DNA from: Verrucomicrobiota bacterium
GTDB taxonomy: Bacteria > Verrucomicrobiota > Verrucomicrobiia > Opitutales > Coraliomargaritaceae
Length of the DNA: 64,000 nt
Reading direction: 5' to 3'
Assembly: GCA_039815375.1 (NCBI GenBank)
Contig: JBCBZJ010000013.1
Span: 1 to 64,000 of the forward strand
A program made the translations under genes and the position numbers. The notes under the pieces were generated by a model. That model searched no databases. It saw only the letters and a program-made list of their open reading frames with translations, and was not told the origin of the DNA. The number at the start of each line of letters is the position of its first letter. The stretch's first letter is position 1. Shown here piece after piece: positions 273 to 29,034 of the stretch.

Positions 273-553
273 ACGAGCCTTTCGCTGGGATCGACGCAAT
301 TACTGAAAAGGCAATTGTAGCGATACTGAAGGAGCTTCGGGAGTCAGGAAAGACTGTGGTTTGTGTGCATCACGACCTGACAACAGTTAAAGAATATTTC
401 GACGAGGTCTTCCTCCTTAACTTGAGGAAGGTAGCTCACGGTCCGATCAATGAGGTTTTCACAGCGGAGAACCTGAATAAGACTTATGGCGGTAAGCTCT
501 CGCTGCTCGATGAAGTTGCCAGTTCAGTAGCGATTAATTTGGCGGACCGTTAG
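125..553 (+). CDS. Mn/Zn ABC transporter ATP-binding subunit (TroB/MntB-like), 5'-truncated
   Basis: [15 protein letters not shown] signature, YFMDEPF Walker B, VHHDL H-loop; Walker A is missing because the 5' part is replaced by the fold-back. Confidence 0.9.
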
Positions 554-570
554 ATCGGGCCCTGCGTGCC

Positions 571-2121
571 ATGGGGAATTTTTCGAAGTCATTTCCAAGT
601 GCTGTTCAATGCGTGTTCCTGCTCATGATCGGTTTGGTTTTCTCAGTATGTGTAGAAGCATCGGACCGTGACCGGATCCATGATGAAGGGCCCCCGAGGG
701 ATGAAGTACATGAGCGCCTTCATGACTCTTCGCACCAGCAAGGTAACAAGGTATGGAGTTGGCTTCCGCCTGGGGAGAAAGTTCAACGGGTGCTGAGCTT
801 CCGCGATCATAATACACGCGTTGTTTTCCTTGGGCTGGTGCTCCTTGGAGTTGTTTCAGGGATCACCGGCACCTTCCTACTACTGCGAAAGCGCTCGCTG
901 CTCAGCGATTCAGTCAGCCACGCTACACTTCCGGGTCTGGCGATTGCTTTTATTATTTTTGAGCTCGTTACTGGAAAAGGAAATTCTCTGCTTTGGCTCC
1001 TGCTTGGTGGAATTGTCTCTGGGCTGTTGGCGATGGCTTCTGTGATTTACCTGCCGATGGTCAGTAAGATCAAGAGTGATGCAGCACTCGCTCTTAGCCT
1101 CACCTTTTTTTACGGGATCGGTGTCGTCCTACTCTCGGTCATCCAACAAATTCCCACCGCCAATGCATCAGGGCTTGAGTATTTCATCTATGGAAATGCT
1201 GCGACTTTGACCACCGGGGACGTCCGCTTAATTGGGGCAGTTGCTGTGGTTTGTCTCTTGGTCTGCCTTTTTCTGTTCAAGGAGTTTTCGCTACTATGTT
1301 TCGATAGTGGTTACACGCGGACGCAGGGCTACTCCGCAATCGGGTTGGATGCTGGACTGATGAGTCTTATTGTCTTGGTCAGTGTTGTGGGGCTTCAGGC
1401 AGTCGGCTTACTCCTCATCATGGCCCTGCTGATTATTCCTGCCGTGGCTGCGAGGTTTTGGGCGAAACGCTTGTTTTCTGTTCTGCTGGTGAGCGGTTTG
1501 ATTGGTGGTTTGAGCTGTTTTCTCGGAGTGCTCCTCAGTAGTCTCTATCCGAGGCTGCCGACCGGTGCGATTATCGTTCTCACAGCAACCTCATTTTTCG
1601 TATTGAGCCAGTGCTTTGGTAGCTATCGGGGTTTAGCTCATCGCTGGCTCGAACGCCGAAAGACACAAAGACGGCTTTTAATGCAGCAGTTTCTCCGGCG
1701 AATCTTCGACGTGCAGGAAAAGCATTGCGCGAAATCACTTCATCTGGAGTCCGAGCAGAGCTGTTGCGAGAAAGCCGAGCCTCTGGACATCGCGTTCATA
1801 TTTGAGGGCCGCTCCTGGTCGCGTTCCCGGTTTGAACGCGTCGTGCGCCGCGCCGCCCGGGGAGGCTGGATTCGTCTGATCGAAGGCGGTATGCTGATGC
1901 TGACCGATGGAGGTATGCGATTGGCTCGACACTATGCCCGTCAGCACCGGCTCTGGGAAATTTATTTGATCCGTTATGCCGATGTGGCTCCATCGCAAGT
2001 GCACCACGATGTCGAACGAATCGAAGAAGTTGCTGCGCCGGAAATCGTCCGAGAGATCGAAAACCTCTTTGATTCGGAGCTAAAATGTCGCAACATGCCG
2101 GCTGAACCTCACGAAGTTTGA
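571..2121 (+). CDS. Mn/Zn/Fe ABC permease fused to a C-terminal DtxR/MntR-type metal-binding repressor domain
   Basis: SLLSDSVSHATLPG and GLQAVGLLLIMALLIIPA permease motifs; C-terminal LTDGG...RQHRLWEIYL...VHHDVERIE. Confidence 0.85.
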   Translation: MGNFSKSFPSAVQCVFLLMIGLVFSVCVEASDRDRIHDEGPPRDEVHERLHDSSHQQGNKVWSWLPPGEKVQRVLSFRDHNTRVVFLGLVLLGVVSGITGTFLLLRKRSLLSDSVSHATLPGLAIAFIIFELVTGKGNSLLWLLLGGIVSGLLAMASVIYLPMVSKIKSDAALALSLTFFYGIGVVLLSVIQQIPTANASGLEYFIYGNAATLTTGDVRLIGAVAVVCLLVCLFLFKEFSLLCFDSGYTRTQGYSAIGLDAGLMSLIVLVSVVGLQAVGLLLIMALLIIPAVAARFWAKRLFSVLLVSGLIGGLSCFLGVLLSSLYPRLPTGAIIVLTATSFFVLSQCFGSYRGLAHRWLERRKTQRRLLMQQFLRRIFDVQEKHCAKSLHLESEQSCCEKAEPLDIAFIFEGRSWSRSRFERVVRRAARGGWIRLIEGGMLMLTDGGMRLARHYARQHRLWEIYLIRYADVAPSQVHHDVERIEEVAAPEIVREIENLFDSELKCRNMPAEPHEV

Positions 2122-2131
2122 AGAATTCTGT

Positions 2132-3106
2132 ATGGAGTGGACTGGTATTGATACGTGGATTGTGATCACTGCCGCACTGGTAGCGATGGCTTGCGCGATT
2201 CCGGGTGTATTTCTCTTTTTGAGCAAGCAGAGTATGTTTGGTCATGGCGTAGTTCATTCGGTCCTTCCGGGCCTTGTGATTGCATTCCTCATCACCAGCT
2301 CGCGCGATCTGACTGCCGTTTTAATCGGAGCGATGATTGCTGCTATTCTAACGGCAGTCCTGACACAACTGGTTCACGAGACGGGAAAGGTTGAAGAGGG
2401 GGCGTCTCTGGGGGTGGTTTTCACCTCGATGTTTGCTCTCGGGATCTTGCTGATTCGAGCTACCGTGGATACGGTTCACATTGATCCGGATTGCGTGCTT
2501 TTCGGAATATTAGAGACCTCGGTAATTGATGCGGTTCTCTTTGACGAGATTCCGAAAGTTGCAATCAACTCGGCCATCATGCTCGTCGTGAATCTTCTAC
2601 TTGCTGCGCTGTTTATAAAGGAGCTGCGCATTGCGACCTTTGATCCGGCCCTTGCCAGTGCGATGGGCTTACGCCCGCGTTTAGTTAACTATGGAGTCAT
2701 GATCTCGACGGCAGTAACTGCTGTCCTCGCTTTTGAAAGTGTTGGTAGTATCCTCGTTATCGCCATGATGATTGCTCCGGCCGCCACAGCCTATCTCTTG
2801 ACCAGTCGTTTGCTTGGGATGCTTGTTTGTGCACTAGGTATTGCGGTGCTTACAGCCGTCTCCGGGCACCTTTTCAGCCTTTTCGTGCCCTCTGCAATTT
2901 TTCAGATTCTTCCTGGCGGCATCGAAGTGGACTCGACCAATATAGCTGGCGGCATGTCGGTGATGGCAGGGATCTTGTTTATTGCGGCTCTCTTATTTAG
3001 CCCAGGAAAAGGCATCATCTCCAAATACCGTGCCCAAAAAAAGCTCGGAGAATCCGAATCAAAACGGCGCGATCATAGTTCCCTTGCCGAGCCAGCCGAG
3101 GTTTGA
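2132..3106 (+). CDS. Mn/Zn ABC transporter permease (TroD/MntD-like)
   Basis: HSVLPG, VHIDPDCVLFG, AFESVGSILVIAMMIAPAATA; operon context. Confidence 0.9.
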   Translation: MEWTGIDTWIVITAALVAMACAIPGVFLFLSKQSMFGHGVVHSVLPGLVIAFLITSSRDLTAVLIGAMIAAILTAVLTQLVHETGKVEEGASLGVVFTSMFALGILLIRATVDTVHIDPDCVLFGILETSVIDAVLFDEIPKVAINSAIMLVVNLLLAALFIKELRIATFDPALASAMGLRPRLVNYGVMISTAVTAVLAFESVGSILVIAMMIAPAATAYLLTSRLLGMLVCALGIAVLTAVSGHLFSLFVPSAIFQILPGGIEVDSTNIAGGMSVMAGILFIAALLFSPGKGIISKYRAQKKLGESESKRRDHSSLAEPAEV

Positions 3107-3139
3107 TCTGTAGACTAGATGATGAGCGTTCGAGTGCCC

Positions 3140-3667
3140 TTACTCGAAACGTTTCTTATGCTCTCGTGAGACGGTGACGTATTTGTCCGCCATACCCTTA
3201 AGTCCTGCAATCTCTTCATCTGTAAGCGAGCGGACAACTTTGGCGGGGCTGCCAAGGACAAGTGAACGTTCAGGAATTTGAGTGCCCTTGGTCACGAGAG
3301 CTCCGGCACCCACGATCGACTGAGCCCCGATGACTGCTCCGTCCAGAATCGTCGCCTGCATTCCGATCAGGCATTCGTCGTGGATCTCGCAGGCATGGAT
3401 CATAGCTGCATGGCCGATAGTGACAGATTTGCCAACTTTTACGCCATAGTCGTCGGCAAGGTGGACAATCGCGCCATCCTGAATGTTAGACTCTTCGCCG
3501 ATTTCGATAGTGTTGATGTCGGCCCGTAGCACGCAATTGTGCCAGACACTTGAATTTTTGGCTAGAGTGACCGCCCCAATGACAACCGCACCACGGGCAA
3601 CGTATGCGGATGAATCGATCTGAGGAGCTTGGTCCAGATATTTGGCAAGCCGTTCTCCAGTCGTCAT
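3140..3667 (-). CDS. Gamma carbonic anhydrase family (hexapeptide repeat) protein
   Basis: VLRADIN, SNIQDGAIVH, TIGHAAMIHAC, GSPAKVVR motifs. Confidence 0.9.
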   Translation of the reverse strand: MTTGERLAKYLDQAPQIDSSAYVARGAVVIGAVTLAKNSSVWHNCVLRADINTIEIGEESNIQDGAIVHLADDYGVKVGKSVTIGHAAMIHACEIHDECLIGMQATILDGAVIGAQSIVGAGALVTKGTQIPERSLVLGSPAKVVRSLTDEEIAGLKGMADKYVTVSREHKKRFE

Positions 3668-3676
3668 ACGCTCGGA

Positions 3677-4258
3677 CTATACCTTTTCGACAACGCCGTC
3701 GGCCAGACCATATTCGATGGCCTCACTCGCAGTCATATAAAAGTCGCGGTCGGTGTCTTTCTGGATCTTTTCGAGTGGCTGACCGGAACTCTCCGCAAGG
3801 ATGGCGTTGAGCTCGTCGCGCAGACGCTCCATTTCCTTGGCCTGGATGTGGATATCGACTGCAACGGCAACCATTTGGCCAGAGATAAGTGGCTGGTGAA
3901 TCAACACGCGGGAGTGAGGGTAGAGCAGTCGTTTGCCCTTGTCTGCACCACAGAGGAGGATTGAGCCCATACTTGCTGCCATGCCTGTTACGACAACCGT
4001 AATCGGGGAGCTGATAAGCTTCATTGTGTCGTAAATTGCCATTCCGGCTGTGATGGAGCCACCGGGTGTGTTGATGTAAAAAGTAATTTCTTCTCCGGGG
4101 CCTTCTGCCTCCAGATAGAGCAGCTTCTCGGTGACATCGCGGGCGGACTTGTCACTTACTTCGCCCCAAAGAAATACTTTTCGGGCTTTTAGGAAAGTTT
4201 CCTGAATCTTAATGGGATTTTCTTTTTCTTCTTTTGGCTTATCTTCGCTGGACATCAT
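3677..4258 (-). CDS. clpP: ATP-dependent Clp protease proteolytic subunit
   Basis: YINTPGGSITAG, GMAASMG (catalytic Ser), IHQP (His), DTDRDFYM. Confidence 0.95.
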   Translation of the reverse strand: MMSSEDKPKEEKENPIKIQETFLKARKVFLWGEVSDKSARDVTEKLLYLEAEGPGEEITFYINTPGGSITAGMAIYDTMKLISSPITVVVTGMAASMGSILLCGADKGKRLLYPHSRVLIHQPLISGQMVAVAVDIHIQAKEMERLRDELNAILAESSGQPLEKIQKDTDRDFYMTASEAIEYGLADGVVEKV

Positions 4259-4332
4259 TTTACTTGTTAAATGTTTGTGGCATTGAGCAGAGCACAGCTT
4301 GCTGATCTTTCAAGCCGCGACTGCAGGATGGT

Positions 4333-4776
4333 TTAAGCTTCGATCTTGTCGATTCGGCGCTGATGGCGGCCGCCTTCGAATTCGGCGTCGAGCCATGCGG
4401 CAACGATTTTAACTGAGAGTTCTGCAGGCACGGGTCGCGCGCCGATTGAAATACAGTTGGCGTTGTTGTGCTGTTTGGTGAGCTTCGCAGACCATTCGTC
4501 CCAGCAGAGGCCGCAGCGCACCCCTTTGACCTTGTTGGCCACGATGGCTTCGCCGTTGCCCGAGCCTCCGAGGACAATGCCGCAGTCGGCCTGGCCATTT
4601 GCCACGGCTTCGGCAGCAGGGCGGATGAAATCGGGATAATCGCAGGATTCATCGGAATAGCAGCCGCAGTCGATGACCGTGTGGCCACGGCTTTCGAGCA
4701 GCTCGATAATGGGCGCTTTAAGCGGGAAGCCCGCGTGGTCGGTGCCGATGGAGACGGTGAGTGTTTGATTCGTCAT
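4333..4776 (-). CDS. rpiB: Ribose-5-phosphate isomerase B
   Basis: GTDHAG, DYPDF, GGSGNGE, HNNAN, FEGGRHQRRI. Confidence 0.95.
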   Translation of the reverse strand: MTNQTLTVSIGTDHAGFPLKAPIIELLESRGHTVIDCGCYSDESCDYPDFIRPAAEAVANGQADCGIVLGGSGNGEAIVANKVKGVRCGLCWDEWSAKLTKQHNNANCISIGARPVPAELSVKIVAAWLDAEFEGGRHQRRIDKIEA

Positions 4777-4832
4777 TTCGTGATTTGATTCAAAGCGGTT
4801 CCTCGGATGTGGAGCAACACTTCAATCGTGAT

Positions 4833-6041
4833 TTATAGGGCAAGTCGTTCGTGTTTGCGGACGAGTTCGAACAGGATGATTGCTGCAGCGATGAGAGTCA
4901 TGCCGATAAATGCAACTACGGATGGGCTGGACTGGCTCAAAATCCAGTATCCAAGGAAGGGGGCCAGCGTGCCACGAAGCCCGGTTAAGGCCATGTGGAT
5001 GCTCATATAGGAAGAAGCTTTTTCCTCAGATGCGATCTTGGTTACCCAAAGGCTCCAGAAAATCTTGCCGCCTCCCATGGCGAGCCCTTGAAAGGCCATC
5101 GCGATCCCAAGGACGAATAAGTTCTTTGTGAAAAAGAACAGGCCTATACTCAGAAGGAAGAAAATATTGAGCAGGTTTCGAGTCGTAACGAAGTGCAGGC
5201 GGTCAAAGAAATGGCCCCACATTTTTGTGCTCAAAATCCGCGCAACAGATGGAACGACCATCATGAGAATCGCTATGGTCGTGTTGTTGGCATTGATGCC
5301 GTAAGCAGGATCGGCGAGATAGTCGACGCGGACGGGTAGGGCGATCAAGTTTCCGAGGCCCAGCAGCATCCAACTGCCAAGCAAATAGCCGAAGAAGCCA
5401 TCTTTCCAGATTAAGCTAAAATTTTGCCACGGATTTCCCACATGCTCGCACGAAAGTGGGTTGCTGGGCATTTGTGCGCAAATCGATGCCGACGCAAAGG
5501 ATGCGACCATCATAATGATGAAGATCCAGTGATAGGTTTCGATCCGCCAATCGAGTAATTTCCCGCCGAGAATGGCGAAGGCGATGGAGAAGACCCCTGA
5601 CAGAATGAATGGCATAGTCATTCGGCTGCCACGCTCCTTTGCGCTATAATTCTCAGTATAAATCTGCAAAACAAGTGGGCCCTGCTGCACCGCTGCCATC
5701 TGGCTCGTCACTGCAAAAAAAGTGAAAACGACGAGTGTGCTGGCCCAACTGGCTCCCAGGAGGAGAATTCCGGCAAAGCTGAAAACGAATGTACAAGCGA
5801 TACTGGGCCGCGCTTTTAAGGTGGCGGCGATAAAAAGAGTCAATGGTGTCAGGAGGAAGCCGATCGGCCCTGCCCCGGCGATGAAGGCCTTGGCGGTTTC
5901 TTCCGCATGAAAATAGCGAATCGCAATGACCAGTGCAAAGGTCGTCCAGCCGGCTTCAAGAATGCCATAGAACGGGGAGCGGAGTAGATCGTTGCGATAC
6001 GTGGCAGTCGCCTTATTTGTATGCACGGCTACTTGCTCCAC
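4833..6041 (-). CDS. MFS transporter
   Basis: 402 aa with about 12 hydrophobic segments; MFS-like loops (ENYSAKERGSR, WGHFFDR). Confidence 0.75.
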   Translation of the reverse strand: MEQVAVHTNKATATYRNDLLRSPFYGILEAGWTTFALVIAIRYFHAEETAKAFIAGAGPIGFLLTPLTLFIAATLKARPSIACTFVFSFAGILLLGASWASTLVVFTFFAVTSQMAAVQQGPLVLQIYTENYSAKERGSRMTMPFILSGVFSIAFAILGGKLLDWRIETYHWIFIIMMVASFASASICAQMPSNPLSCEHVGNPWQNFSLIWKDGFFGYLLGSWMLLGLGNLIALPVRVDYLADPAYGINANNTTIAILMMVVPSVARILSTKMWGHFFDRLHFVTTRNLLNIFFLLSIGLFFFTKNLFVLGIAMAFQGLAMGGGKIFWSLWVTKIASEEKASSYMSIHMALTGLRGTLAPFLGYWILSQSSPSVVAFIGMTLIAAAIILFELVRKHERLAL

Positions 6042-17818: not shown

Positions 17819-18259
17819 GCTTTTGCACCGTCATGAATCGCGAATGCAAAAGGGCTTTTTAGGAGGAGGTAAAAATTCAGGCAACCATGGTCTTTGAAAA
17901 GGTTCTTTAGCACTACAAATCAAATTTAAACGAGTCTATAGTCTCAACAGCAGGTCAGGTAAAAAATGATCTTAAGTTCGCGCCATCAGTACTCAGAAAC
18001 TTGTGCGAAGAAGTTGATTTTCGTGTAGGGAGTTCTGATGTATACAAAAGCATGCGCTTCCAGCATTTGGTTGTATGAGCGCTTTATTTTGTAAAAACTA
18101 ATTAGTATTCATCCGAAAACTAACGTAAAATGGTCTTTTGAGACCATGTTGGCATAACAGTAACGGCGATAGCACAAAAAGTTTTTTAGATCGCAGTATA
18201 TCTTGCTCTCGACCCTATGCACAGTTCGATTTCAAGCTATTGGCTTACCAATACAAGAG

Positions 18260-19096
18260 ATGAGGATTGTTGCCTACCTAATGCCATGCCTTATAGCACC
18301 ACTGCTATTTAGTGAAGAAACGACACCAGCCCTGACTGAGTCAGAGGCGCTTGAAATTGTCTATGCGCAGCGAGAAGCAAAGGCAGCTCTAGAGCTTGAG
18401 CGCAAACAGCGTATTCTTGGGGTTGAGGCCGAGAATGAAACTGTTCTCGATAGAGGCAGCCACAAAATGATCTTACGGCGTGTGGGCTGGCAGCCTCTTG
18501 TTGCTCAGATTGAGACTGAAAGTGCTTCCGCTGGAACGGACACAGACTTTTCCGGTATCGTGCCCGAGCATTCTATGATTTCCATAAGCTCTACCGTTTA
18601 TGATGACACCTTCACGAAGGTGACATGGCGTGAACCGGGTGCTGCCGGAACCAAGCCAATTAATGTCTGGGTCAATCGGAATCTCAAATACTTAAGCCTC
18701 ATTCATCAGTTCACCCAGAATGGAGTTCATTACAGCTATGTCGGTCCAACCCAAAGCATCGATACAGATGCCTATGTGACGCACCCCGTTACCGGCGAAC
18801 AATTCCCACGCTATGATTTGCCGGACTGGATGCCGACCGCTGAAGACTTCCCCTCCGATACGTCTGCCTACCTTGTTGTTCTTGAAGATGAGACGTCTGT
18901 TGTTCCTCAACTTCTCTACCAGCAAATGGATGCGCTCTTAGTGCATTTCACTGAAAACGAGCCCGAGCTACTCGCGTCTTACCAGCGCAAAGAGGCTTTG
19001 AAAAAGGCTAAAGCACAACTCGACGAACAGGAGCCGGAAGCCAAACCTGATGTAGTGATCAACTACTGGCCTATTCAAAGCAACGCAGACCTTTAA
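18260..19096 (+). CDS. Secreted hypothetical protein, first gene of the RHS operon
   Basis: Signal-peptide-like start at ATG 18260; 6 bp gap to the next gene; no recognisable family. Confidence 0.7.
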   Translation: MRIVAYLMPCLIAPLLFSEETTPALTESEALEIVYAQREAKAALELERKQRILGVEAENETVLDRGSHKMILRRVGWQPLVAQIETESASAGTDTDFSGIVPEHSMISISSTVYDDTFTKVTWREPGAAGTKPINVWVNRNLKYLSLIHQFTQNGVHYSYVGPTQSIDTDAYVTHPVTGEQFPRYDLPDWMPTAEDFPSDTSAYLVVLEDETSVVPQLLYQQMDALLVHFTENEPELLASYQRKEALKKAKAQLDEQEPEAKPDVVINYWPIQSNADL

Positions 19097-19102
19097 GACG
19101 AT

Positions 19103-21424
19103 ATGCGAAAACTCCTATTCTGTTTTTCCCTTACTGGGCTGGCTTCGACCAGTGTTTTAACCGGGCAAACTTCGACCGACCTGAATGAAGGCACGCAGGT
19201 TAATACAAGCACGACACCGGATAACTATATCTTTTCATGGTGGGGCAAGACCGGTCGTTTCTACGTAATCGAACACAGTGTAGATTTACTCTCCCCGTGG
19301 AACCACATTCGTGCGATTGAACCCGGGTATGACGAGGCTGCCGAATGGGGCTTTGCGACCAATTCAGATAAGTTCTTCCTCAGACTAAAATATACCGATG
19401 ATGCTCTGATCGGTTCATTCTATGGGGATGACGATCTCGATGGTATTATTAACGGTGTCGAATTATTACTTGGCTATTCTGCAATTACCGCTAACGGCAA
19501 TACAGATGGCGATTTGCTGACAGACCGTCAGGAACTTGCGTTGGGTCTCGATCCAAATAATAATACCGACGCAGTTGACGGTGATGCTGACGGCGTAGTC
19601 GATGCAATCGAAAGACTCTATGGTCTATCCACTTCCGGCACCACCGATTTGGACGGAGATTCGATGCATGATGAGTGGGAGCTACTGAACTACCTTGATC
19701 CAGCGATTAATGATGCATCTGACGACCCGGATGCAGACAACAGGACAAACCTGCAGGAATTTACCGATGGCACCAACCCCTGGGCTTTTGATACCGATGG
19801 CGATACCATCCCCGATGATGTCGAAATCACCAATTCACTTGATCCTACTATCGCCGACCGTATCCGGACGCGAAACAACTACACTTTGCAATTCAGTTCC
19901 GATCTTGAGGATGATGAAAATCAGTTTGTCGACCGCGTTTCTGAAAACGGAGGCTTTACCGTTAATGACGGCTCAGTGATTGCGGCCATAGACAATTCCG
20001 GCTTGGTCTATGCAGTTGGAGATAATTCCCGAGGCCAGTTCGGTTTGGGCAGTGCTGCCGTGGGTAACGTCTACACCACTCCGATTGCGACCGGATTCAG
20101 TGGAATCAAAAGCGTTGCCGTAGGACGGGGAACAATCCACGCAGTTGAAACTGCGGGCACTGTCCGTGCGGCTGGAGCACAGGACCTTGGACGTCTCGGT
20201 AATGGTCTGACCACTTCTGCAGATGTAGATATGCCGGTTACCCTTTCCGGCTTTACCAATGTCAGTTCCATCAATGCCCGATCTGAAGGTGAATACTATG
20301 ATGCGGTTGTTTCAGGAGATATTTACGTATGGGGCACCAATCTCTTGGACGCGTTTTCCAACTATTACGGCGACGGTTCATTCACGACCGCAGAGCCCAC
20401 GCCGTTCGGCCCCTTGAAAGGCATTAGCGATGCCGAGCGTTTGTCTTCCGATTATACAGATGCCCGAAGCAGTCAGGCAGCGACCGTCTTGGAGAATGGC
20501 TCTGTTCTAATGTGGGGGACGAACGCCACTGGTTCCCTAACGGTAAATAGTGATAATCTCTATCTTACTAGCGAGAATAGCTTTGAGACAGTGTCCGGGC
20601 TTCCTGCCATGGAAGAGGTATCGCTATACTACGGTTCAGTGGCAGCTCTGGACCGATCAGGTGGCTTATGGACTTGGGGTGCGTTCAATGGTTTTAGTGG
20701 CAGCGTCAATTATACGGCTCAGAGAACCCCCGCACTTGCCGCAACTGAAGTTCCAGTTCGCGCCTTGTCTGCCGCGAATTATGACGATTTCACTCCTCTG
20801 AATTTTAAAGACAGCTATGGCCTCTTCCTCGGCGACGATGGCCATGTGCGGCGCTTTCAGTGGCTTGAAGATAGTGATGTATATGCGACTGCGGGCGGTG
20901 ATTTGGGTAAATTCTATGTGCGCCCATTGGATCTGCCTTTTCGGGTTATTGCACTGACTTCGACTATAAACGGGGCATTTCTGCTCAGTGAGACGGGCGA
21001 CCTATACAAGTATTCCGAGGTCGTCGGTGTCGCCGAAGTCATCGAATTGGAAGAAATCGCTATTCCGAACTTTTTTGCTTCGACCGATAGCAATGGTGAC
21101 GGGCTTAGTGATGCTCTGGAACGCTTCCTCGGCCTGAATCCTTCAAGTGCAGATACCAATGGCGATGGGATAACCGATTTCATTTCCGTCCAGCTTGGTC
21201 TCGATTCCACAGCATGGGATCTGGATGGCGATGGTATTCCAAATGAGGTGGAAATCGCCAATGGCCTGGATCCGAACGCTCAGGACTCCGATGGAGATGG
21301 GATGCTCGATAACGAAGAGTTCTACCTGAAGGATCGTCTGAACAACTATATTCTAGCCACCGAGCCTAACACCTCCGGCCCCGACATTGTTCTTGTTGAG
21401 CCGAGTTCGGCCACTGCCCTTTGA
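19103..21424 (+). CDS. Secreted protein with TSP3-like Ca-binding DxDxDG repeats and an RCC1-like propeller
   Basis: Signal peptide; many DxDGDG..D..E...G.DP repeats; RCC1-like VYAVGDNSRGQFGLG, VLMWGTN, LWTWG. Confidence 0.8.
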   Translation: MRKLLFCFSLTGLASTSVLTGQTSTDLNEGTQVNTSTTPDNYIFSWWGKTGRFYVIEHSVDLLSPWNHIRAIEPGYDEAAEWGFATNSDKFFLRLKYTDDALIGSFYGDDDLDGIINGVELLLGYSAITANGNTDGDLLTDRQELALGLDPNNNTDAVDGDADGVVDAIERLYGLSTSGTTDLDGDSMHDEWELLNYLDPAINDASDDPDADNRTNLQEFTDGTNPWAFDTDGDTIPDDVEITNSLDPTIADRIRTRNNYTLQFSSDLEDDENQFVDRVSENGGFTVNDGSVIAAIDNSGLVYAVGDNSRGQFGLGSAAVGNVYTTPIATGFSGIKSVAVGRGTIHAVETAGTVRAAGAQDLGRLGNGLTTSADVDMPVTLSGFTNVSSINARSEGEYYDAVVSGDIYVWGTNLLDAFSNYYGDGSFTTAEPTPFGPLKGISDAERLSSDYTDARSSQAATVLENGSVLMWGTNATGSLTVNSDNLYLTSENSFETVSGLPAMEEVSLYYGSVAALDRSGGLWTWGAFNGFSGSVNYTAQRTPALAATEVPVRALSAANYDDFTPLNFKDSYGLFLGDDGHVRRFQWLEDSDVYATAGGDLGKFYVRPLDLPFRVIALTSTINGAFLLSETGDLYKYSEVVGVAEVIELEEIAIPNFFASTDSNGDGLSDALERFLGLNPSSADTNGDGITDFISVQLGLDSTAWDLDGDGIPNEVEIANGLDPNAQDSDGDGMLDNEEFYLKDRLNNYILATEPNTSGPDIVLVEPSSATAL

Positions 21425-24400
21425 TTACGATGCTTAGACATTTACTTCTTGCGATTAGCTTCGCTTCCCTAGTTGTCTTGCCGATGTGGGCCGACTTGCC
21501 CCGACGTGCTGTGATCGCGGCTCCTGCTGAGAGCCAGGAGGCAGTGGCGTCCTCTGCCGATGCAGTTGAGGACGCTTCACCCTTTCGTTTCAGTCCGATT
21601 GCCGATGGCACGGCTACGGATGCCGAAAATAATGAACTCGCCGGTCTCCTGACACAGTATGCGACTTCCGCCAAACCCTATGATTTTACATGGCTGGATG
21701 CATATCTAACAAAGTATCCAGATAGCGCGTGGAAGGGCGTCCTGTGCCTGAACCGTGGCCTTATTGAGCGTTATAACGGATTTATCGGCGCGTCATTCAA
21801 GTCGTTTGAGCAAGCTTGGGTATCACTCAAGGAGTCAGAGGACTTGATGCTTCGGGGATATGCCAACCATGCCCTTGCCGAGCTGATCTCAATCAAAGCT
21901 GGCCTTGGGCGGATGGATGAACTGGAAGTGCTTTTTGCGAAGACCGAAGGAAGGCGTTTTCATGGTAAATCTGCTCAGTTGATTTCCAGCGCCCGTGAAG
22001 GCCTGTCTTCGATGGAAAAATTCCCGGAGCGTTCCTTTAATTGCGGTCCGGCAGCCCTGCTCAATGTGCTGGCAACTTTAGGTGACGAAGCCGCAACTGA
22101 CCCCCGCATCATGTCTAAGGCCGCCACGACGGACGGCTTGAATTTGTGGCAAGTATCCGAATTGGCCCAGGAGGTTGGGTTCAACGAGCACATTCTGGCC
22201 TATCGCGAAAACGGCGGCATCCAACTGCCGGCGATCCTGCATTGGAAAGAAGGGCACTTTTCGGCTTTGTTGAGGCTGGAGAACAGTCGTTATCTCATTA
22301 AAGACCCCACGCTTGGCAATGTCATGTGGGTGCCGGAGGAAGCGGTCGATTCCGAAGCAAGCGGCTACTTCCTGTTGGCCAGAAGTGATGTGCCGGAGGG
22401 TTGGCGTGAAGTGGATTCGGGCGAAGCAGAAGATATCTGGGGTAAGGGTAAGGCCACGACTTATGAATTAGGTTCCACAAGACCTTACGACCTTAAGAAC
22501 TGTGAGGAAAATGGCAATCCCGGTATGCCCGGCCACAGTGTGCACCTGCTCGCTCTCAGCGTCAATGTGACCGATACCCCAATCTGGGTAAACACGCCCT
22601 ATGGCCCTTCAATGCATTTTACCGCGACCTACAACCAGCGTGAAATCAGCATTCCACTGACGGATCAGTTTGGTTTTATGGGCCTTAACTGGACGCATAA
22701 CTGGCAGTCCTGGATTGATGCCAACCCAGGCAACGGCAGCATTATCCCATTGGCCGCCACTCGCATGGTTGCCGGTGGCGGTAAAGAGGATTTTGAAATC
22801 AATAATGGCAGCACGGGCTATAAGCCGCAGCGCGATACGCAGGCTGACTTGGTCGCGCTGTTCGATGGGGGCAACTTGGACGGCTTTGAACTTAATTTTC
22901 CGGATGGCTCTAAATGGGTCTATCAGCATGAGCAGGCATACATGGCCAATTCTAACGCACGGTATTTCCTGACGAGCATTACTGATCCTTACGGTAATGC
23001 CGTTACGATAAATTACGACAGTGACGACCGCATTCAAAGCGTCGATTCCGGTGCAACAACGGCAGTTGATTTGAAATTTGCCTATGAGTTTAACGGCAGC
23101 GGCCAACCTGTTTGGCCCTCCTCCGCTTCATCCGATGTCGAAGATAATTTTATTCGCGCGGTCATTGGCCCGCAGGGGCGTTATGCCGAATTTGACTACA
23201 ACGACGACCTGATGGTGAAGCGTGTCGTAGATATGGCTGGAATGGAATCGACTTTCAGTTACAAGGATGTGAACAGCAACGTTTACATTGGTGCATACGC
23301 TACTCCTTACGGAACGACGGTCTTTGATTATCCAGAAACGAATGGCACGGATGATGTGGTCCGTGGTGTCGTCATCACCGATCCCGAAGGCCAGAAGGAA
23401 CGGCTGGAATACAATCAGGTAGATTTCAACTTTCCGGGAGAATTAGTTCCTTCCGGCACAGCCCTGGGCATTCACTTCTACGACGATCTTAATACCTATC
23501 ATTGGGACAAGCGCGCCATGGAAACTGCGGTGCAGACGGATGGCTCGGTTGATTACGGTGAAGCCACAATTTACCACTGGATGCTGGCGACCAGCCAGCA
23601 GGCCTCCTCTGTGCTCCACAGCATAAAGCGCCCGCTGGAGAACCGCGAGTGGCTGATTTACGATGATTCCCCGGATGGTGGCGCGACGATTGGCGCGACA
23701 AATCGTCCTTCTGCAAACGAGCGCTACGTAAAAGATGAATCCGGTGCCACCGTGCTCCGCACTACCGGGTTCGAATACAACAGCCTCGGGAACATGACCG
23801 GCAGCATCGATCCGAGGGGCCGCGAGCTGGAAATGAACTATGCCGCCAACGGCATCGACCTGCTCAATGTGAAGCAGCGCACCGGGGCCGGAGCCAACGA
23901 CTTTGAGACCCTGAACAGCTTCGATTACGATGAGGATAACGACGGTAACGATGACTTCCCGCGACTGCCTTCCCTGATCGATGGGGCGGATGGCGTTCGT
24001 CTGGACATGACTTACAATAGCGAGGGCCAAGTTACCTCTGCTATACGCAAAGAGCCGGACGGATCGGGCGGTTTCACCGACAAGGGCACGACAGACTACA
24101 CGTATTACACAACTGGCGATCACATCGGCTTTTTGGAGAAGATTGAAGGGCCAAGCGTGGGTGGTTCGCGTGCTACTACGACTTACACTTATGATGATTA
24201 CGGGAGGGTGGAGACAGCGACCGATACCGATGACTTTACGCTCACATATACATATGACGATCTCAACCGGATTGTTAAAATCGATTACCCGGACGGCACG
24301 CATATCGCCAACATCTACGAGCCCTTCAGTGACGGTCTGGATAGGATCGGCTTCCGTGACCGGATGGGCCGCATCTCGCAATTCCGGCACGATGATCTGG

Positions 24401-26991
24401 GCCGCGTCGTGCAGTCCATCGATCCTAAGGGCCAGAGCACCCTTTACCAGTGGTGTGGCTGCGGCTCACTCAATGCGCTGATCGACCCGAAGAGCCAGGC
24501 CACCACCTGGCAGCGCGATGTGCAGGGCCGCCTGACCAAAAAGGAGTATGCGGACGGCACCCGCATCGACTACGCCTACGAGCCTGAATCCGGCTTTATC
24601 AGCAAGGTGACGGACCAACGCGGCTATGAACAGGAGTTCAAATATTTTAAGGACGGCAATATCGAGGAAATCAGCTTCGATGACGGCGGCACTGCTGACC
24701 CCAATTACATCGATGCGCCAACTTTGACTTACGATTATGGTGATTTCACTGACCCTAATGATCCCAATCGCTATTTTAATCGCATCCATTCAGTTACTAC
24801 GGCAGGAGATCCTGACGATTACATCTACCAGTATTATGGCTTCACCGGAGATGGAAATGCCAACCGCCTGCAGAAAGTCACTATTTCCAAGCAGCGCGGT
24901 GCGCAAACGGTCAATAACGACATCGATTACGCTTACGATGATCTCGGACGCCTGCTGACCCGCAGCTTCAGGGGAGATACCGAGACCTACAATTATGACG
25001 ATTTGGACCGCCTAAATAGCTTAAGCGATCCTCTTGGCGACTTTATCTATAGCTATGACGAGCTCACCGCTCGCATCCTCAACGTTCAGCACTCGGTTTC
25101 CTCTGTTAACGGTATCCGCACCGATCTAGCCTATCAGAGTAAGATCGCCGGTGGTGAGGAGCGTAAGGTGCCTTACCTCAGCAGCATTAGCCACAGTAAT
25201 CCCTCCGGCACCGTCAGCGCTCATGCCTACCTGCGTAATGAAAACGGCTGGATTGATCTCTGGCAGCAGTTCGACGGCAGCCAGTGGCAGAGCCACAGTT
25301 ACCGCTATGACCAGCAGGGGCAGCTCCAGCGCGACCGCAAATATGACGGTCTCGATGAGAATAGCCCACTGCTCGAAAGTGAAGAATACCGCTACGACTT
25401 GGCGGGTAATCGGACTTTGTATAAAGACGGTAGTGCCCAGCTCAACGATAGACACAATAACCAGCTCAACCAGCTCAACCAGCTCACCGCACGCAGCAGC
25501 GAGGGTAGCGTGCTCTTCCACGGCACCATCAGCGAACCCGGTAAGGTCTTCGTTCAACAGCTCGACGGCAGCAACAACGTGCTCACCTCTACCGAAGCGC
25601 AGCTCTATGGCGGGAATGAATTTTACGCTTCCTTGGACTTGCCCGTCGGCAGTAACACCGTCCGAATTATCGCCACCGACATCCACGGCGAGAGCACCAC
25701 GCAAGATTACTCGGTTCCCGTGGCCGCAGACATTGGCGATAGCTTCACCCACGATGCAGCAGGAAACTTAACACAGTGGACGAAGGCTGACGGAACTGTC
25801 GTGAAATACAAATGGGATGCTGCGAATAGGCTCCGTGAAATTTTGGTCGATAGCGTCTCGATCAAGACCTTCGAATATGATGGTTCCGGGCGCATGGTCC
25901 GCGCGACCAGCGGAGGTCAGAGCGACGATTACTTCTGGGATGGCTTGGAGCGTTTAGGCCGCGAGAATGTAGATGCGACACCGACGGTCTATCGTCGCTA
26001 CTTAACCCAGGGCTTCACCGTGAGTCTCGACGGAGCCACTGCTTCGAATTACTACGTCCTCCGCGATCACTTAGGCAGCACGCGTGAAGTGCTCGACGGT
26101 ACTTACGCCACCGTCGCCACTTACGATTACTCGGCGTGGGGTGAAGTAAGTAAACTAAGCGGCACCGTCGACGCCGACCAGCTTTACACCGGGCATCTCT
26201 ACTTTGCGGACACCGAAACACCGCTGCACCTCGCGCCGTATCGGAGCTATCAGCCTGAGTTGGGGCGTTGGTTGCAGAGAGACTTTCTAGGAGAAACAGG
26301 ACCGGATGGACCAAACGTTTACGCTTACACCCAGAACAATCCTGTTAACTGGTTCGATGGCACCGGACTTTGGACTTCAGCTCATTCAGCTGTCGCAGTA
26401 GCTGCAGCATGGGGCGCTGGAGCGGGTGCTTTCGAAGGTGCAGTGACCAGCGTAGCTTTTCAGGCAATTGAAAATGCAGGCAATGGCGATTCCTGTGTGA
26501 ACGCTAGTGGTGGTATTGATGGTGGCCGTGTGTTGCAGGACGCTGTAATTGGTGCAGGCATCGGAGCAATCACTGCGGGTGTCGGAACCAAGTTCCAAAT
26601 CTTTGCTAAGATTGCTAATCGACTGAAGGGAGCCACAAACAAGTTTGCTCCGGGAGCATCTCGTCTAGTAAATGCGCCAAATGCTAAGATTGATCCGAGA
26701 AAGTTAACAGATTATGCCCTGAATCCGAATCATCCTGTTGGTGGTAACAAAGCAAAGGTGTTCGAATCAGCTCTTGGCTACAACCAGTCAAATGCACAAG
26801 GCTTACTCAAGCAGCTTCAACAAGGGGTTCTCAATAACACGCCTGTTGCTGGAAAAGTTGATAATTTCGGAAGTCGTTTCACTGTGGATATTCCCGTTAC
26901 AGGTCCTGGTGGAAGTGGAACTGTTCGAACTGGTTGGATATTTAAATCAGGGTCAAATACACCCGAGCTAACAACACTATTCGTAAAGTAA
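21421..26991 (+). CDS. RHS/YD-repeat polymorphic toxin: signal peptide + C39-like peptidase + RHS core + DUF6883-like C-terminal toxin
   Basis: NCGPAAL...LPAILHW..GHF...IKDP (C39); many YD repeats; RDHLGS, YSAWGE, RSYQPELGRWLQRD, PVNWFDGTGL core end; tip IDPRKLTDYALNPNHPVGGNKAKVF. Confidence 0.92.
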   Translation: MITMLRHLLLAISFASLVVLPMWADLPRRAVIAAPAESQEAVASSADAVEDASPFRFSPIADGTATDAENNELAGLLTQYATSAKPYDFTWLDAYLTKYPDSAWKGVLCLNRGLIERYNGFIGASFKSFEQAWVSLKESEDLMLRGYANHALAELISIKAGLGRMDELEVLFAKTEGRRFHGKSAQLISSAREGLSSMEKFPERSFNCGPAALLNVLATLGDEAATDPRIMSKAATTDGLNLWQVSELAQEVGFNEHILAYRENGGIQLPAILHWKEGHFSALLRLENSRYLIKDPTLGNVMWVPEEAVDSEASGYFLLARSDVPEGWREVDSGEAEDIWGKGKATTYELGSTRPYDLKNCEENGNPGMPGHSVHLLALSVNVTDTPIWVNTPYGPSMHFTATYNQREISIPLTDQFGFMGLNWTHNWQSWIDANPGNGSIIPLAATRMVAGGGKEDFEINNGSTGYKPQRDTQADLVALFDGGNLDGFELNFPDGSKWVYQHEQAYMANSNARYFLTSITDPYGNAVTINYDSDDRIQSVDSGATTAVDLKFAYEFNGSGQPVWPSSASSDVEDNFIRAVIGPQGRYAEFDYNDDLMVKRVVDMAGMESTFSYKDVNSNVYIGAYATPYGTTVFDYPETNGTDDVVRGVVITDPEGQKERLEYNQVDFNFPGELVPSGTALGIHFYDDLNTYHWDKRAMETAVQTDGSVDYGEATIYHWMLATSQQASSVLHSIKRPLENREWLIYDDSPDGGATIGATNRPSANERYVKDESGATVLRTTGFEYNSLGNMTGSIDPRGRELEMNYAANGIDLLNVKQRTGAGANDFETLNSFDYDEDNDGNDDFPRLPSLIDGADGVRLDMTYNSEGQVTSAIRKEPDGSGGFTDKGTTDYTYYTTGDHIGFLEKIEGPSVGGSRATTTYTYDDYGRVETATDTDDFTLTYTYDDLNRIVKIDYPDGTHIANIYEPFSDGLDRIGFRDRMGRISQFRHDDLGRVVQSIDPKGQSTLYQWCGCGSLNALIDPKSQATTWQRDVQGRLTKKEYADGTRIDYAYEPESGFISKVTDQRGYEQEFKYFKDGNIEEISFDDGGTADPNYIDAPTLTYDYGDFTDPNDPNRYFNRIHSVTTAGDPDDYIYQYYGFTGDGNANRLQKVTISKQRGAQTVNNDIDYAYDDLGRLLTRSFRGDTETYNYDDLDRLNSLSDPLGDFIYSYDELTARILNVQHSVSSVNGIRTDLAYQSKIAGGEERKVPYLSSISHSNPSGTVSAHAYLRNENGWIDLWQQFDGSQWQSHSYRYDQQGQLQRDRKYDGLDENSPLLESEEYRYDLAGNRTLYKDGSAQLNDRHNNQLNQLNQLTARSSEGSVLFHGTISEPGKVFVQQLDGSNNVLTSTEAQLYGGNEFYASLDLPVGSNTVRIIATDIHGESTTQDYSVPVAADIGDSFTHDAAGNLTQWTKADGTVVKYKWDAANRLREILVDSVSIKTFEYDGSGRMVRATSGGQSDDYFWDGLERLGRENVDATPTVYRRYLTQGFTVSLDGATASNYYVLRDHLGSTREVLDGTYATVATYDYSAWGEVSKLSGTVDADQLYTGHLYFADTETPLHLAPYRSYQPELGRWLQRDFLGETGPDGPNVYAYTQNNPVNWFDGTGLWTSAHSAVAVAAAWGAGAGAFEGAVTSVAFQAIENAGNGDSCVNASGGIDGGRVLQDAVIGAGIGAITAGVGTKFQIFAKIANRLKGATNKFAPGASRLVNAPNAKIDPRKLTDYALNPNHPVGGNKAKVFESALGYNQSNAQGLLKQLQQGVLNNTPVAGKVDNFGSRFTVDIPVTGPGGSGTVRTGWIFKSGSNTPELTTLFVK
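26632..26642 (+). repeat. Toxin-junction core GCCACAAACAA, copy A (inside the RHS gene)
   Basis: Exact 11-mer in frame as GCC ACA AAC AA(G), immediately before the toxin tip. Confidence 0.85.
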
Positions 26992-26996
26992 TTGGC

Positions 26997-27188
26997 ATGA
27001 AAGAGCATGATACAGTTCGACTAAAAACAGACGTAGAAGATTATGGCTTAAAAGCTGGAATGATTGGTGTCATCGTATGCGTTTTCGATGAACCCGAGAT
27101 TGCTTATGAAGTTGAATTTTCAAACGAGAAAGGAGAAACCATATGTGAGCTAGCGCTTTCTGCGGATAGTATTGAGTTCGTGGCATAA
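26997..27188 (+). CDS. DUF4926-like small protein, probable cognate immunity protein
   Basis: EHDTVRL...GLKAGMIGVIV...AYEVEF pattern; 5 bp after the toxin stop. Confidence 0.8.
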   Translation: MKEHDTVRLKTDVEDYGLKAGMIGVIVCVFDEPEIAYEVEFSNEKGETICELALSADSIEFVA

Positions 27189-27545
27189 TTTGTCGCCACA
27201 AACAACGCAATCCCATCAACGCTTGCTCGTGTTGTTCCTGACAATGCAGCGACTAGAGCTTCGGGCACATTAGGCAGATCGAATGCTGATGATGTTTTTG
27301 TTACAGCCGCAGAAGATATAAGAGGCTTAAACTCTGCTCAAATTGCTGAACGACTTACTATACAACCTAGCTCTACTGGTTTTAGGGTTACAGAATTTGC
27401 TACTCCACCTAACGGATTAGCTACGCCGATCAATCGCCTTGACGATGGCTTTATTGGCGGTGGTCGAACCGCTGGAGGAGCACGAGAGTTTGTTATTCCA
27501 AATGGCCCGATTCCACCTGGTGCAACAACGAGGACGATCCCATGA
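27189..27545 (+). pseudogene. Start-less orphan toxin domain, Ntox10-like (not in the ORF track)
   Basis: Own translation: FVATNNAIPSTLARVVP...DVFVTAAEDIRGLNSAQIAERLTI...EFATP...GFIGGGRTAGGAREFVIPNGPIPPGATTRTIP*; open for 118 codons, no start codon. Confidence 0.8.
27195..27205 (+). repeat. Toxin-junction core, copy B
   Basis: AATTTGTC-GCCACAAACAA. Confidence 0.85.
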
Positions 27546-27823
27546 GTAAAATAGAACCGAACGAAAAAGAGATCATTGGTAAGTGGTTATTTGAAGGCTC
27601 AAAAGTAACTGGCGATTCAGCATGTAAGCGAATCGAGGATCTAACTCAGAACTATCTCAAGGAGCTGGCTGCTGACGGAGAAGATTGGTCTATACTTTAT
27701 CAAGATCCAGAAGATCAGAGGTATTGGGAGTTTACTTATCCTCAAAGCCACATGCACGGTGGCGGGCCTCCAGCTTTGACTTTGCTTCAAGATGAGGAAG
27801 CGAAAGCTAAATACAAAATCTAG
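27542..27823 (+). CDS. Immunity protein, Imm27-like
   Basis: GKW...D.ACKRIE.L...W..LYQDP.D.RYWE.TYPQS.MHGGGPP; ATGA overlap with the orphan toxin stop. Confidence 0.8.
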   Translation: MSKIEPNEKEIIGKWLFEGSKVTGDSACKRIEDLTQNYLKELAADGEDWSILYQDPEDQRYWEFTYPQSHMHGGGPPALTLLQDEEAKAKYKI

Positions 27824-27843
27824 CCAACTCCGTTCGCTAAGTC

Positions 27844-28464
27844 ATGATTACGATTCTACGTTTCATTCTCTTCTTTCTGGTGGCACCAGCCTTTGCTATC
27901 GTAGCGCAAGCGGCTGGAAGCCTTCAGGATGATTTCCGCATCTTAGATGTTGATTTTCAGGCTGAGTTGGTCGCTTTAGATCTTACTGACGGTGAAATCT
28001 GCAACTACGACTCAAGCGGTGCACTGTTGCATCAACGCAAGAGCCTCGACGGCGAAGATCGCCTAATCGAATTCGAAGAATTGAAAACATCAGGGGCGGA
28101 ACGGCCCCTTTTTTTGTTTTTGGCCGAATTAGTAGCCACAAACAAGTTGGTCGATACCAATACGATTCGATTTACGCAAGATAGCATCAGTTCCAGATTT
28201 AGGGATGGTAGATCTGTTCAAGGGCTAATTGACGATTTGGGCTCTGGCAGAGTTTCGCCTAATGATCTGCCTCCGATTCGGACATTCCAGCAAGATGGAT
28301 TAACATTCACACTCGACAATCGTAGGCTCTTCGCGGCTGATCAGGCAGGTGTTCCGATCAGAACCGTTCCTGCTACGGCAGCCGAAGTTGCAAAAGAGCT
28401 CCCGAAAAAGTTTACGACGCCAAATCAAGGAACTATAATTGGTATCAGAGGTAAACTGGAATAG
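27844..28464 (+). CDS. Orphan module: signal-peptide-like leader fused at the junction to a ParB-like toxin domain
   Basis: After VATNK: IRFTQDSIS..F.DG....LPPIR....FTLDNRRL, a ParB-like toxin pattern. Confidence 0.7.
   Translation: MITILRFILFFLVAPAFAIVAQAAGSLQDDFRILDVDFQAELVALDLTDGEICNYDSSGALLHQRKSLDGEDRLIEFEELKTSGAERPLFLFLAELVATNKLVDTNTIRFTQDSISSRFRDGRSVQGLIDDLGSGRVSPNDLPPIRTFQQDGLTFTLDNRRLFAADQAGVPIRTVPATAAEVAKELPKKFTTPNQGTIIGIRGKLE
28092..28121 (+). terminator. Intrinsic-terminator-like hairpin just upstream of junction C
   Basis: AGGGGC-GGAACG-GCCCCT followed by TTTTTTGTTTTT. Confidence 0.6.
28135..28145 (+). repeat. Toxin-junction core, copy C
   Basis: GCCGAATTAGTA-GCCACAAACAA. Confidence 0.85.
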
Positions 28465-28475
28465 GAGAGCTAGAA

Positions 28476-28730
28476 ATGGAGCTACATGAAAAAATCGAAT
28501 CTATTGATTCTAAAGATCAACTCGTTGACTTTCTCAGTGCGTTAAAGTCGGATTTTTCTCAAAATAAAGAAGACTGGGAAAACCCGAATCTGGAAAGATA
28601 TTTGGATGCTATGGAAGCATGGACAGGCTCTTGGGAGAATCTCTACAAGAATACTGGTCGGGAGTTCCCGGAGCAACCTACGTGGAGCATGGTAGCTGAG
28701 ATGCTTTATGCCGCCAAGATTTACGAGTAG
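28476..28730 (+). CDS. Small acidic probable immunity protein
   Basis: 84 aa, WENPNLERYLDAMEAW...PTW...L.AAKIYE; AGGAG RBS; follows a toxin domain. Confidence 0.75.
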   Translation: MELHEKIESIDSKDQLVDFLSALKSDFSQNKEDWENPNLERYLDAMEAWTGSWENLYKNTGREFPEQPTWSMVAEMLYAAKIYE

Positions 28731-29034
28731 TATTCTAAGGCTGTTTATTGTGTTGCTGACTCTTTTCGGGAGTCAGACGGTAGCACTTGGGCAAATTGAC
28801 GCCGAATTTGTAGCCACAAACAAGGCGCCGAAAGTATTATTTGGACAACCCAATGTTAAATCGACCTTTGCTAATGGCCCATTCAAAGGGAAGTCGATCA
28901 ACGAAGTTTCTCAGGGGCTTAGGAATGGGACAATAAGTCCAGACCAATTACCTCTAGATGTTATTATTAGTAACCCCACATGCCAACCAATAGCGCGACT
29001 GCCATGTGGTGCCAAAATTGATGAAAAACATTGA
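28708..29034 (+). pseudogene. Third orphan module: short hydrophobic leader + truncated ParB-like toxin
   Basis: After EFVATNK: VLFGQ..V..TF..G.F.GKSI.EV...L..G.ISP..LP..VI, then similarity is lost near 28970 before any DNRR-type motif; no immunity gene follows. Confidence 0.6.
28813..28823 (+). repeat. Toxin-junction core, copy D
   Basis: GCCGAATTTGTA-GCCACAAACAA. Confidence 0.85.

Follow-up and report, generated by a model that had tools for sequence, protein, structure and literature searches.

How does a toxin gene come by a new C-terminal tip? This question is raised by a stretch of DNA of 64,000 nucleotides (the window hereafter; positions 1 to 64,000, forward strand, of contig JBCBZJ010000013.1 in the Verrucomicrobiota bacterium assembly GCA_039815375.1, family Coraliomargaritaceae), which carries a polymorphic toxin locus of the Rhs/contact-dependent growth inhibition (CDI) type, that is, an Rhs core, a variable tip and a small immunity gene downstream. 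Within this locus one and the same short repeat stands four times at the start of a toxin tip. Tip exchange in Rhs and CdiA proteins has been described since 2009–2011, and the sections of the papers concerned that deal with it leave the mechanism open (PMC2935791, PMC3150448). The repeat is considered here to be a real swap site at the DNA level, most likely the target of an integrative element that loads toxin tips.

The Toxin Locus and Its Four Repeats

Exact copies of GCCACAAACAA lie on the + strand at positions 26632, 27195, 28135 and 28813, with spacings of 563, 940 and 678 bp; all four are in frame, read A-T-N-K/N and open a toxin tip, just as the initial annotation of the sequence had claimed (DUF6883 at site A, Ntox10 at site B and tips without a Pfam match at sites C and D). 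Such a four-fold 11-mer is not a product of chance. Matches with at most one mismatch number six against a shuffle mean of 1.37, and none of 100 shuffles reaches six; any 11-mer with at least four copies arose in one of 500 Markov simulations of positions 26500–29000, and four dispersed copies of an 11-mer are found in one of 1391 genome tiles of 2.5 kb each.

The first site (26632..26642, +) joins body and tip in an Rhs/YD-repeat toxin gene of 1856 amino acids (aa) (21421..26991, +) composed of a C39-peptidase-like N-terminal part, RHS repeats, the Rhs core, a linker and tip A (DUF6883, 26632..26991, +, Pfam E 6.7e-28). The probable immunity gene of tip A, a role deduced from its position, encodes DUF4926 (26997..27188, +) and is followed by a 6-bp remnant, TTTGTC (27189..27194, +), that resembles the end of the leader described below as C-type. 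Site B (27195..27205, +) then opens tip B (Ntox10, 27195..27545, +, Pfam E 4.7e-43), which has no start codon here and of which a near-identical copy is carried on a full C-type leader in P0011; the Imm27 immunity gene follows at 27542..27823 (+). The C-type leader itself (27844..28134, +, 97 codons) leads through site C (28135..28145, +) into tip C (28135..28464, +, no Pfam or NCBIfam match), behind which lies a DUF7660 gene (28476..28730, +), the probable immunity gene of this tip, again by position. Finally, a D-type leader clipped at its 5' end (about 28731..28812, +) leads through site D (28813..28823, +) into the truncated tip D (28813..29034, +), after which there is no immunity gene. 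Tips C and D have no Pfam match and resemble each other weakly (E 8e-5), and both continue in frame from leaders whose N-termini are hydrophobic and signal-peptide-like. A hairpin, CTGACTC-TTTTCGG-GAGTCAG, lies within the D-type leader at 28745–28769 and is kept in the copies of this leader in two relatives (G005 and G032).

Tip-immunity pairs thus lie downstream in the same orientation, B with Imm27 and C with DUF7660, and the initial description of the site-to-site units as toxin plus immunity gene holds to that extent; however, the units B–C and C–D also contain a leader fused to the next tip. Likewise, C and D are downstream tips as described, but they are leader-fused open reading frames (ORFs) and not bare orphans. 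The palindromic arms of the sites are present as first described, with one mismatch in C, and in site D imperfect arms surround a 6-bp spacer (GCCGAATTTG-TAGCCA-CAAACAAGGC). The left arm, TTTGT or TTAGT, doubles as the F/L-V codon pair that closes these leaders. Site A has the right arm only and is attL-like; its earlier comparison with a hybrid att site fits the flanks collected from other joins, which are conserved on the leader side and unconserved on the body side.

Tip Exchange Between Unrelated Genes

The initial annotation had given the motif as 11 bp. While the repeats are real, the conserved core is 10 bp, GCCRCAARSA, and this core marks toxin starts in the same genome and in relatives, where a search had been recommended, at 27 joins in all including two unrelated Rhs genes. 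The latter belong to the same genome, where the core stands in frame at the tip start on contigs C62 (202103) and C31 (2950); both the Rhs cores and the tips of these genes differ from those of the gene in the window (contig C50). Rhs bodies with the core occur in five relatives (G053, G005, G032, G077 and G160), and leader fusions with the core in G005, G032, G077, G001, G160, L061, L068 (four in one array) and L069. In databases, 27 homologues of the C-type leader are found, which carry about 22 different tips as counted by eye, all joined at the same position; the residues at these joins are ATN (12), AAN (10) and one each of AAS, AEK, ATK, AAK and a form shorter by one codon. The leader belongs to no Pfam or NCBIfam family and gave no usable atlas match.

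Pairwise comparisons locate the break. In three pairs in which the same tip stands on different upstream DNA, identity is about 0.5 before the core and 0.74–0.86 after it, and in five pairs with the same leader and a different tip it is 0.75–0.95 before the core and 0.46–0.54 after it. The last 60 bp of the D-type leader are 92–95% identical to leaders with other tips in two other genera, and the match of this leader in contigs of other organisms ends at 28822–28823, the last bases of site D. By these alignments, unrelated genes exchange tips with the break at the core.

Exact 11-mers number seven in the genome against 1.8 expected, one of them at C51:48257. The copy at C43:5854 was rejected as a swap site, being a chance copy antisense in a sulfite-reductase-like gene, and most matches of a collection scan (13 loci) and of a pattern search in five genomes (32 matches) fell in unrelated genes. 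A DNA search with the D-type leader at E<=1 in 301 genomes gave a single true match, in G032.

Constraint at the DNA Level

Across the 27 joins (nine genomes and three other contigs), which were gathered partly by DNA pattern and whose invariance is to that extent circular, the core reads GCC-RCA-ARS-A with G1, C2, C3, C5, A6 and A7 invariant, A (18) or G (9) at position 4, giving Thr or Ala, and variable positions 8–9, giving Asn, Arg or Lys. A fairer test is offered by 47 Rhs tips picked out with a protein motif: five of them have A-T-N-K/R 112–123 aa before the end, and all five use GCCACAAACA. The background in long ORFs of the genome is 8 of 136 ATN tripeptides encoded by GCCACAAAC, and GCC accounts for only 12% of the Ala codons within tips.

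Leaders adjacent to the sites have a synonymous divergence (dS) of 0.50–0.94 and a dN/dS of 0.29–0.46 (five sequences); on account of these values, the leaders are probably coding, with wobble positions free while the core is not. Their flanks are also conserved, with G at -12 in 16 of 17, A at -8 in 17 of 17 and GT at -3/-2 in 16 and 15 of 17, respectively; this flank may be a binding arm or may reflect shared peptide ancestry. Taken at the level of codons, the motif is constrained as DNA beyond what the protein asks for, and the earlier proposal of a constraint that is not purely one of protein is sustained by wobble bases that are fixed while residues change.

A XerC-Bearing Element in Verrucomicrobiota

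No tyrosine recombinase (PF00589) is encoded on the window's contig, as the initial annotation had noted for the window, while 13 PF00589 matches lie elsewhere in the genome; a serine recombinase or resolvase (PF00239) has no match anywhere in it. A search for a tyrosine recombinase co-occurring with the sites, as had been recommended, led to a XerC of the subfamily NF002331/PRK01287, which stands beside such sites in other loci. It belongs to an element with the architecture helix-turn-helix protein (HTH)–primase–XerC–toxin/antitoxin.

In the window's own genome, contig C44 carries an HTH gene, a primase of 917 aa, the XerC gene (3764–4750; 447.7 bits to NF002331/PRK01287, cut-off 371) and then a leader-tip-immunity-like unit. 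The element spans 192–6028 (L014), its left end being cut by the start of the contig. The copy has 95% protein identity to one in G081, a member of another genus, which suggests recent transfer of the element; its XerC is 71% identical to the enzyme of G067. Close homologues of this XerC are found in seven of 101 genomes of the family and in seven of 351 of the phylum (own genome counted); in a phage collection no match was found at E<=1e-60. At the 21 XerC loci listed, a leader-tip fusion follows the gene, often with a toxin/antitoxin pair in between. In L198 and L201 (G536) the XerC frame continues through an Rhs core and a toxin tip, giving a single fused protein; there are two copies, with different tips.

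Tips that bear the site lie directly behind a XerC gene or its remnant in four loci (G067:C100, G457:C62, L068 and G160:C21). The array in L068 begins behind a fragment resembling the C-terminus of the G067:C100 enzyme. In G160 the order is Rhs/site/tip, immunity gene, broken XerC, toxin/antitoxin, leader/site/tip and C-type leader/site/tip, and the Rhs body and both orphan sites read GCCGCAAGGA; judged by gene order, G160 is the window's layout with the remnant of the element still in place. A XerC remnant is also present in G005. Moreover, the leaders next to XerC genes show a fixed register: in six of seven of them (Verrucomicrobiota, Pseudomonas and Escherichia coli) exactly 11 bp separate the end of GTCGG from the join, and Janthinobacterium has a variant. 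At the same 11-bp register G081 has GGCCCAA, and the Rhs gene upstream of its element contains this word again, in frame.

Behind the C31 immunity gene lies noncoding DNA that is 81% identical over 197 nt to that of C62 and matches the spacer before the XerC remnant of G160 (E 4e-9). This shared noncoding element behind immunity genes, at about 201274–200969 on C62 and about 1889–1497 on C31 (minus strand), includes an inverted repeat, and parts of it match spacers in G160, G032 and L069.

Other recombinases are found in the genome. Two convergent tyrosine recombinases of 195 aa each lie on contig C9 (9787–11209, L013), just upstream of an Rhs operon and beside a relaxase-bearing island. Rhs-type ORFs number at least 11 in this 3.6-Mb genome and belong to several families; several of these ORFs are at contig ends or adjoin genes of REP-associated tyrosine transposases. 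In the window, two secreted-looking genes precede the Rhs gene (18203–21424), one of them with RCC1-like and acidic calcium-binding-like repeats, and a similar pair precedes the Rhs gene on C9.

The Element in Janthinobacterium, Pseudomonas and Escherichia coli

Elements of the same kind are found in other phyla, the related loci being spread over three bacterial phyla in all. A Janthinobacterium plasmid (L202) has five in-frame copies of TCGGCAAACA, at 1320, 8510, 9470, 10527 and 11458, one inside an Rhs gene and four at orphans that follow toprim-XerC genes. A Pseudomonas plasmid (L204) has three copies of GGTGCAAAAG, at 676, 7945 and 8855, and an 8179-bp repeat begins at the site; for this locus no empty allele was found in plasmids. 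Both plasmids thus present lineage-specific 10-bp in-frame joins beside the same XerC subfamily.

In E. coli, four of 5426 genomes match an Enterobacter copy of the XerC gene, and here filled and empty alleles can be compared. Strain ZYB39 has cdiA/VENN/tip1, an immunity gene, HTH, primase, XerC, DinJ/RelE, leader/VENN/tip1, a second copy of the element and leader/VENN/tip0. Strain C11 has the empty allele, an unbroken cdiA/GTTGAGAATAAC/tip0, whose cdiA body (96%) and whose tip0 and next 3.3 kb (100%) agree with those of ZYB39. The difference between them is two units of 7782 bp bounded by the 12-mer GTTGAGAATAAC. The 7782-bp unit is also found at the VENN codons of a different cdiA in C11 and C10, where the sequence common to body and leader is only 12 bp, and as an orphan in a fourth E. 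coli strain (element loci L240, NZ_CP098234.1, 6208–21783; L242, 4208–12001; L244, 6004). Insertion of a circle at the VENN codons would be expected to yield alleles of this form. In E. coli, numerous orphan tips begin directly at GTTGAGAATAA, without upstream homology.

The sites of Verrucomicrobiota, Janthinobacterium and Pseudomonas have CAA(A/G) in common, preceded by a triplet specific to the lineage (GCC, TCG and GGT); the E. coli site is without this CA. No repeated short core was found at the loci of Ralstonia, Caballeronia, Paraburkholderia and Providencia, where joins lie at the Rhs core, at DUF637 or are unclear.

Proposed Mechanism and Its Alternatives

On present evidence, the repeats are in-frame joins of tip and carrier and probably crossover sites of a PRK01287-type XerC belonging to a tip-loading integrative element. 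The circular form of the element would consist of leader/site/tip-immunity-HTH-primase/helicase-XerC-(toxin/antitoxin) and would recombine with that same site where it lies in frame in an Rhs, CdiA or TpsA gene of the host. The product would be body/site/new tip ... leader/site/old tip, with the old tip displaced downstream, and repeated rounds together with loss of the HTH-primase-XerC part would lead to arrays like that of the window. The invariant CAA(A/G) would be the binding half-site and the lineage triplet before it (GCC, TCG or GGT) would form the overlap that is exchanged. Units running from site to site, also those with a C- or D-type leader at their end, may move in trans as non-autonomous cassettes. 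The window is best read, with good but not full confidence, as an array that is without the element. As for the enzyme, a trans-acting recombinase had been postulated by the initial annotation; a tyrosine recombinase is indeed linked to such sites elsewhere, but that a PRK01287-type XerC acts on the window's own sites is something we infer, since the intact copy on C44 differs in sequence at the register of the site. More broadly, it is about an even bet that a widespread and undescribed class of elements reloads toxins by site-specific insertion at the in-frame tip boundary, that the VENN codons of CdiA and the ATNK codons of Verrucomicrobiota are versions of a single att site doubling as a protein motif, and that the same enzyme shuffles non-autonomous cassettes among Rhs, CdiA/TpsA and small secreted leaders.

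A number of observations weigh against this explanation. The window and its contig contain no HTH, primase or XerC gene of the element or remnant of one, and no XerC exceeds the cut-off in G005, G032, G053, G077, G001 and G160, which are draft assemblies. The only intact copy of the own genome, on C44, has GACCCATGG at the register and not GCCACAAAC, and its enzyme may not be the cognate one for the window's sites; the C- and D-type leaders, too, are without GTCGG at the register. Of the 21 listed XerC loci, 13 have their join at the Rhs core, two at GCCRCAA and two at another short site, while four are cut by a contig end, so that the XerC family is not tied to the GCCRCAA core. In addition, the XerCs beside short sites form no supported clade in a tree of 29 proteins (a weak group has 84/98, with G457 outside). 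The closest Rhs homologue (G068, 76% nt identity) changes tip at this very position and yet is without the site, and the site is present in only five of the 47 Rhs tips tested by protein motif, three of these five being from this genome; four other A-[TA]-[NKR] tripeptides 80–140 aa from the tip end, which need not be joins, use other codons. Finally, a blind search for the leader-plus-site pattern gave only the two known loci in 391 genomes and one chance match in 221 genomes.

Several of these observations would suit a microhomology hot spot independent of any recombinase, with tips arriving by transformation and homology-facilitated illegitimate recombination, the 10-mer kept as the 5' end of every tip and the XerC element a hitch-hiker: the window encodes no recombinase, several site-bearing genomes have no intact copy, in most XerC loci the Rhs core is where tips are joined, and such a model has been proposed for the arrays of the Vibrio type VI secretion system (T6SS) in the sections of PMC5361080 concerned. 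However, it leaves unexplained that in two different cdiA genes the ends of the element coincide exactly with a 12-bp repeat, that the register is fixed at 11 bp and that joins between unrelated bodies are precise without an anchor, and it is regarded as unlikely.

A true site might also be served in this lineage by another enzyme that works in trans on free tip-immunity-leader cassettes, namely the host XerCD, the 195-aa pair on C9 or an integron-like integrase. The deviant register sequence of the C44 copy would agree with this, the arm-spacer-arm geometry fits several tyrosine recombinases and the genome holds other integrases. Against this, four independent loci have GCCRCAA arrays that start immediately after the PRK01287 subtype, and no such linkage has been seen for other enzymes, though without a systematic search; the prospect is a slim one.

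The poorest prospect is that A-[TA]-[NK] is merely a processing or linker motif for tip release with codon identity due to shared tip ancestry, for although the equivalent VENN of CdiA is described as a required cleavage site in the part of PMC9424206 that treats it and the C- and D-type leaders are signal-peptide-like and under purifying selection, the wobble bases are fixed while residues vary (T/A, N/R/K and a first residue A, S or G by lineage), the tips belong to unrelated families, and the core is homogeneous within a locus and different between lineages. A second role of A-T-N-K in processing of the protein, besides that as a recombination site, is possible because VENN is a proven cleavage motif.

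For the window, no empty allele paired with a filled one was found. Recombined DNA was also sought in Logan contigs of three runs from one study, one run possibly being that of the source; neither rearranged joints of site A to tips B, C or D, which the initial annotation had proposed to look for, nor the joint of a C44 circle were found, and contigs cannot show absence.

Relation to Known Systems

In the shufflon (Rci, sfx sites), short in-frame crossover sites with asymmetric arms alter the C-terminus of a protein, and in the integron (IntI, attI/attC) cassettes are stacked. Unlike the shufflon, the window has four direct, not inverted, sites and no adjacent recombinase, and unlike both systems the element carries its recombinase along with the cargo and no attC-like long hairpins were seen. 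The linked XerC reaches 126.5 against the cut-off of 265 for the integron integrase model TIGR02249, C50 has no PF00589 match, and of 180 inverted repeats, the 25 longest include none at the sites. The integron-style movement of free cassettes suggested by the initial annotation finds no counterpart in these data, in which nothing was seen for free cassettes or attC hairpins; the evidence favours an integrative element. Some integrative elements have an attP that restores the 3' end of their target gene or supplies another in its place; they insert in the Campbell manner and leave behind direct repeats and the displaced end of the gene, but here the replaced end is a whole toxin domain plus its immunity gene.

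The nearest recombinase-linked arrays, as far as the relevant sections of PMC12247911 describe them, are the rAID arrays of Bacteroidales, which likewise combine a tyrosine recombinase with co-oriented short genes, conserved motifs and cargo for interbacterial conflict. The rAID arrays hold only immunity genes, at intergenic motifs, whereas the units of the window carry tips, the sites are in frame and fuse toxin domains, and the element has a primase/helicase.

Orphan cdiA-CT/cdiI modules that run from VENN to VENN were described by Poole et al. (2011; PMC3150448), whose main text calls the mechanism unknown, and Ruhe et al. (2016; PMC4927057) suspect site-specific recombination in theirs and name no enzyme; the word "recombinase" is absent from the main texts of both. 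As here, these are toxin-immunity units between short in-frame motifs, some of which share only the motif with the main gene. Here, by contrast, such joins are tied to a named recombinase subfamily and its element, to a filled allele and its empty counterpart and to a constant register in the leader; the principle also covers Rhs proteins and small signal-peptide toxins of Verrucomicrobiota.

For Rhs proteins, homology-driven displacement that is limited to clades, with no integrase known with Rhs, is put forward in the sections of Jackson et al. (2009; PMC2935791) on this point, and Koskiniemi et al. (2014; PMC3967940) report, in the corresponding part, exchange over 522 bp at 95% in Salmonella. 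These displacement models resemble the present one in that the new tip pushes the old one downstream and a circular intermediate is proposed. They call for long core homology, however, whereas unrelated bodies here share 10 bp and a recombinase is linked; the window's orphans share only about 10–15 bp with the Rhs gene, and the same tip stands on different bodies. For the Vibrio T6SS arrays, the text of PMC5361080 on their origin reports no evidence of an integrase.

No account of the link between element and site was found in the literature searched, which did not extend to subscription papers and supplements, and the link goes unmentioned in the portions of PMC5131962, PMC6831553 and PMC11278526 that touch on such loci. 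The supplementary gene maps of PMC3150448 and PMC4927057 could bear on novelty.

Significance

The data name a candidate enzyme, an element, a target of 10–12 bp and an empty and a filled allele, which makes the question of how tips are swapped directly testable. A recombinase family with varied short in-frame targets would also be of interest for the fusion of protein domains. If the proposed mechanism is true, toxin repertoires would pass from one delivery system to an unrelated one with no need of homology, a route that homology models exclude, and each insertion would swap a whole toxin domain together with its immunity gene and would thereby change the weapon of its host.

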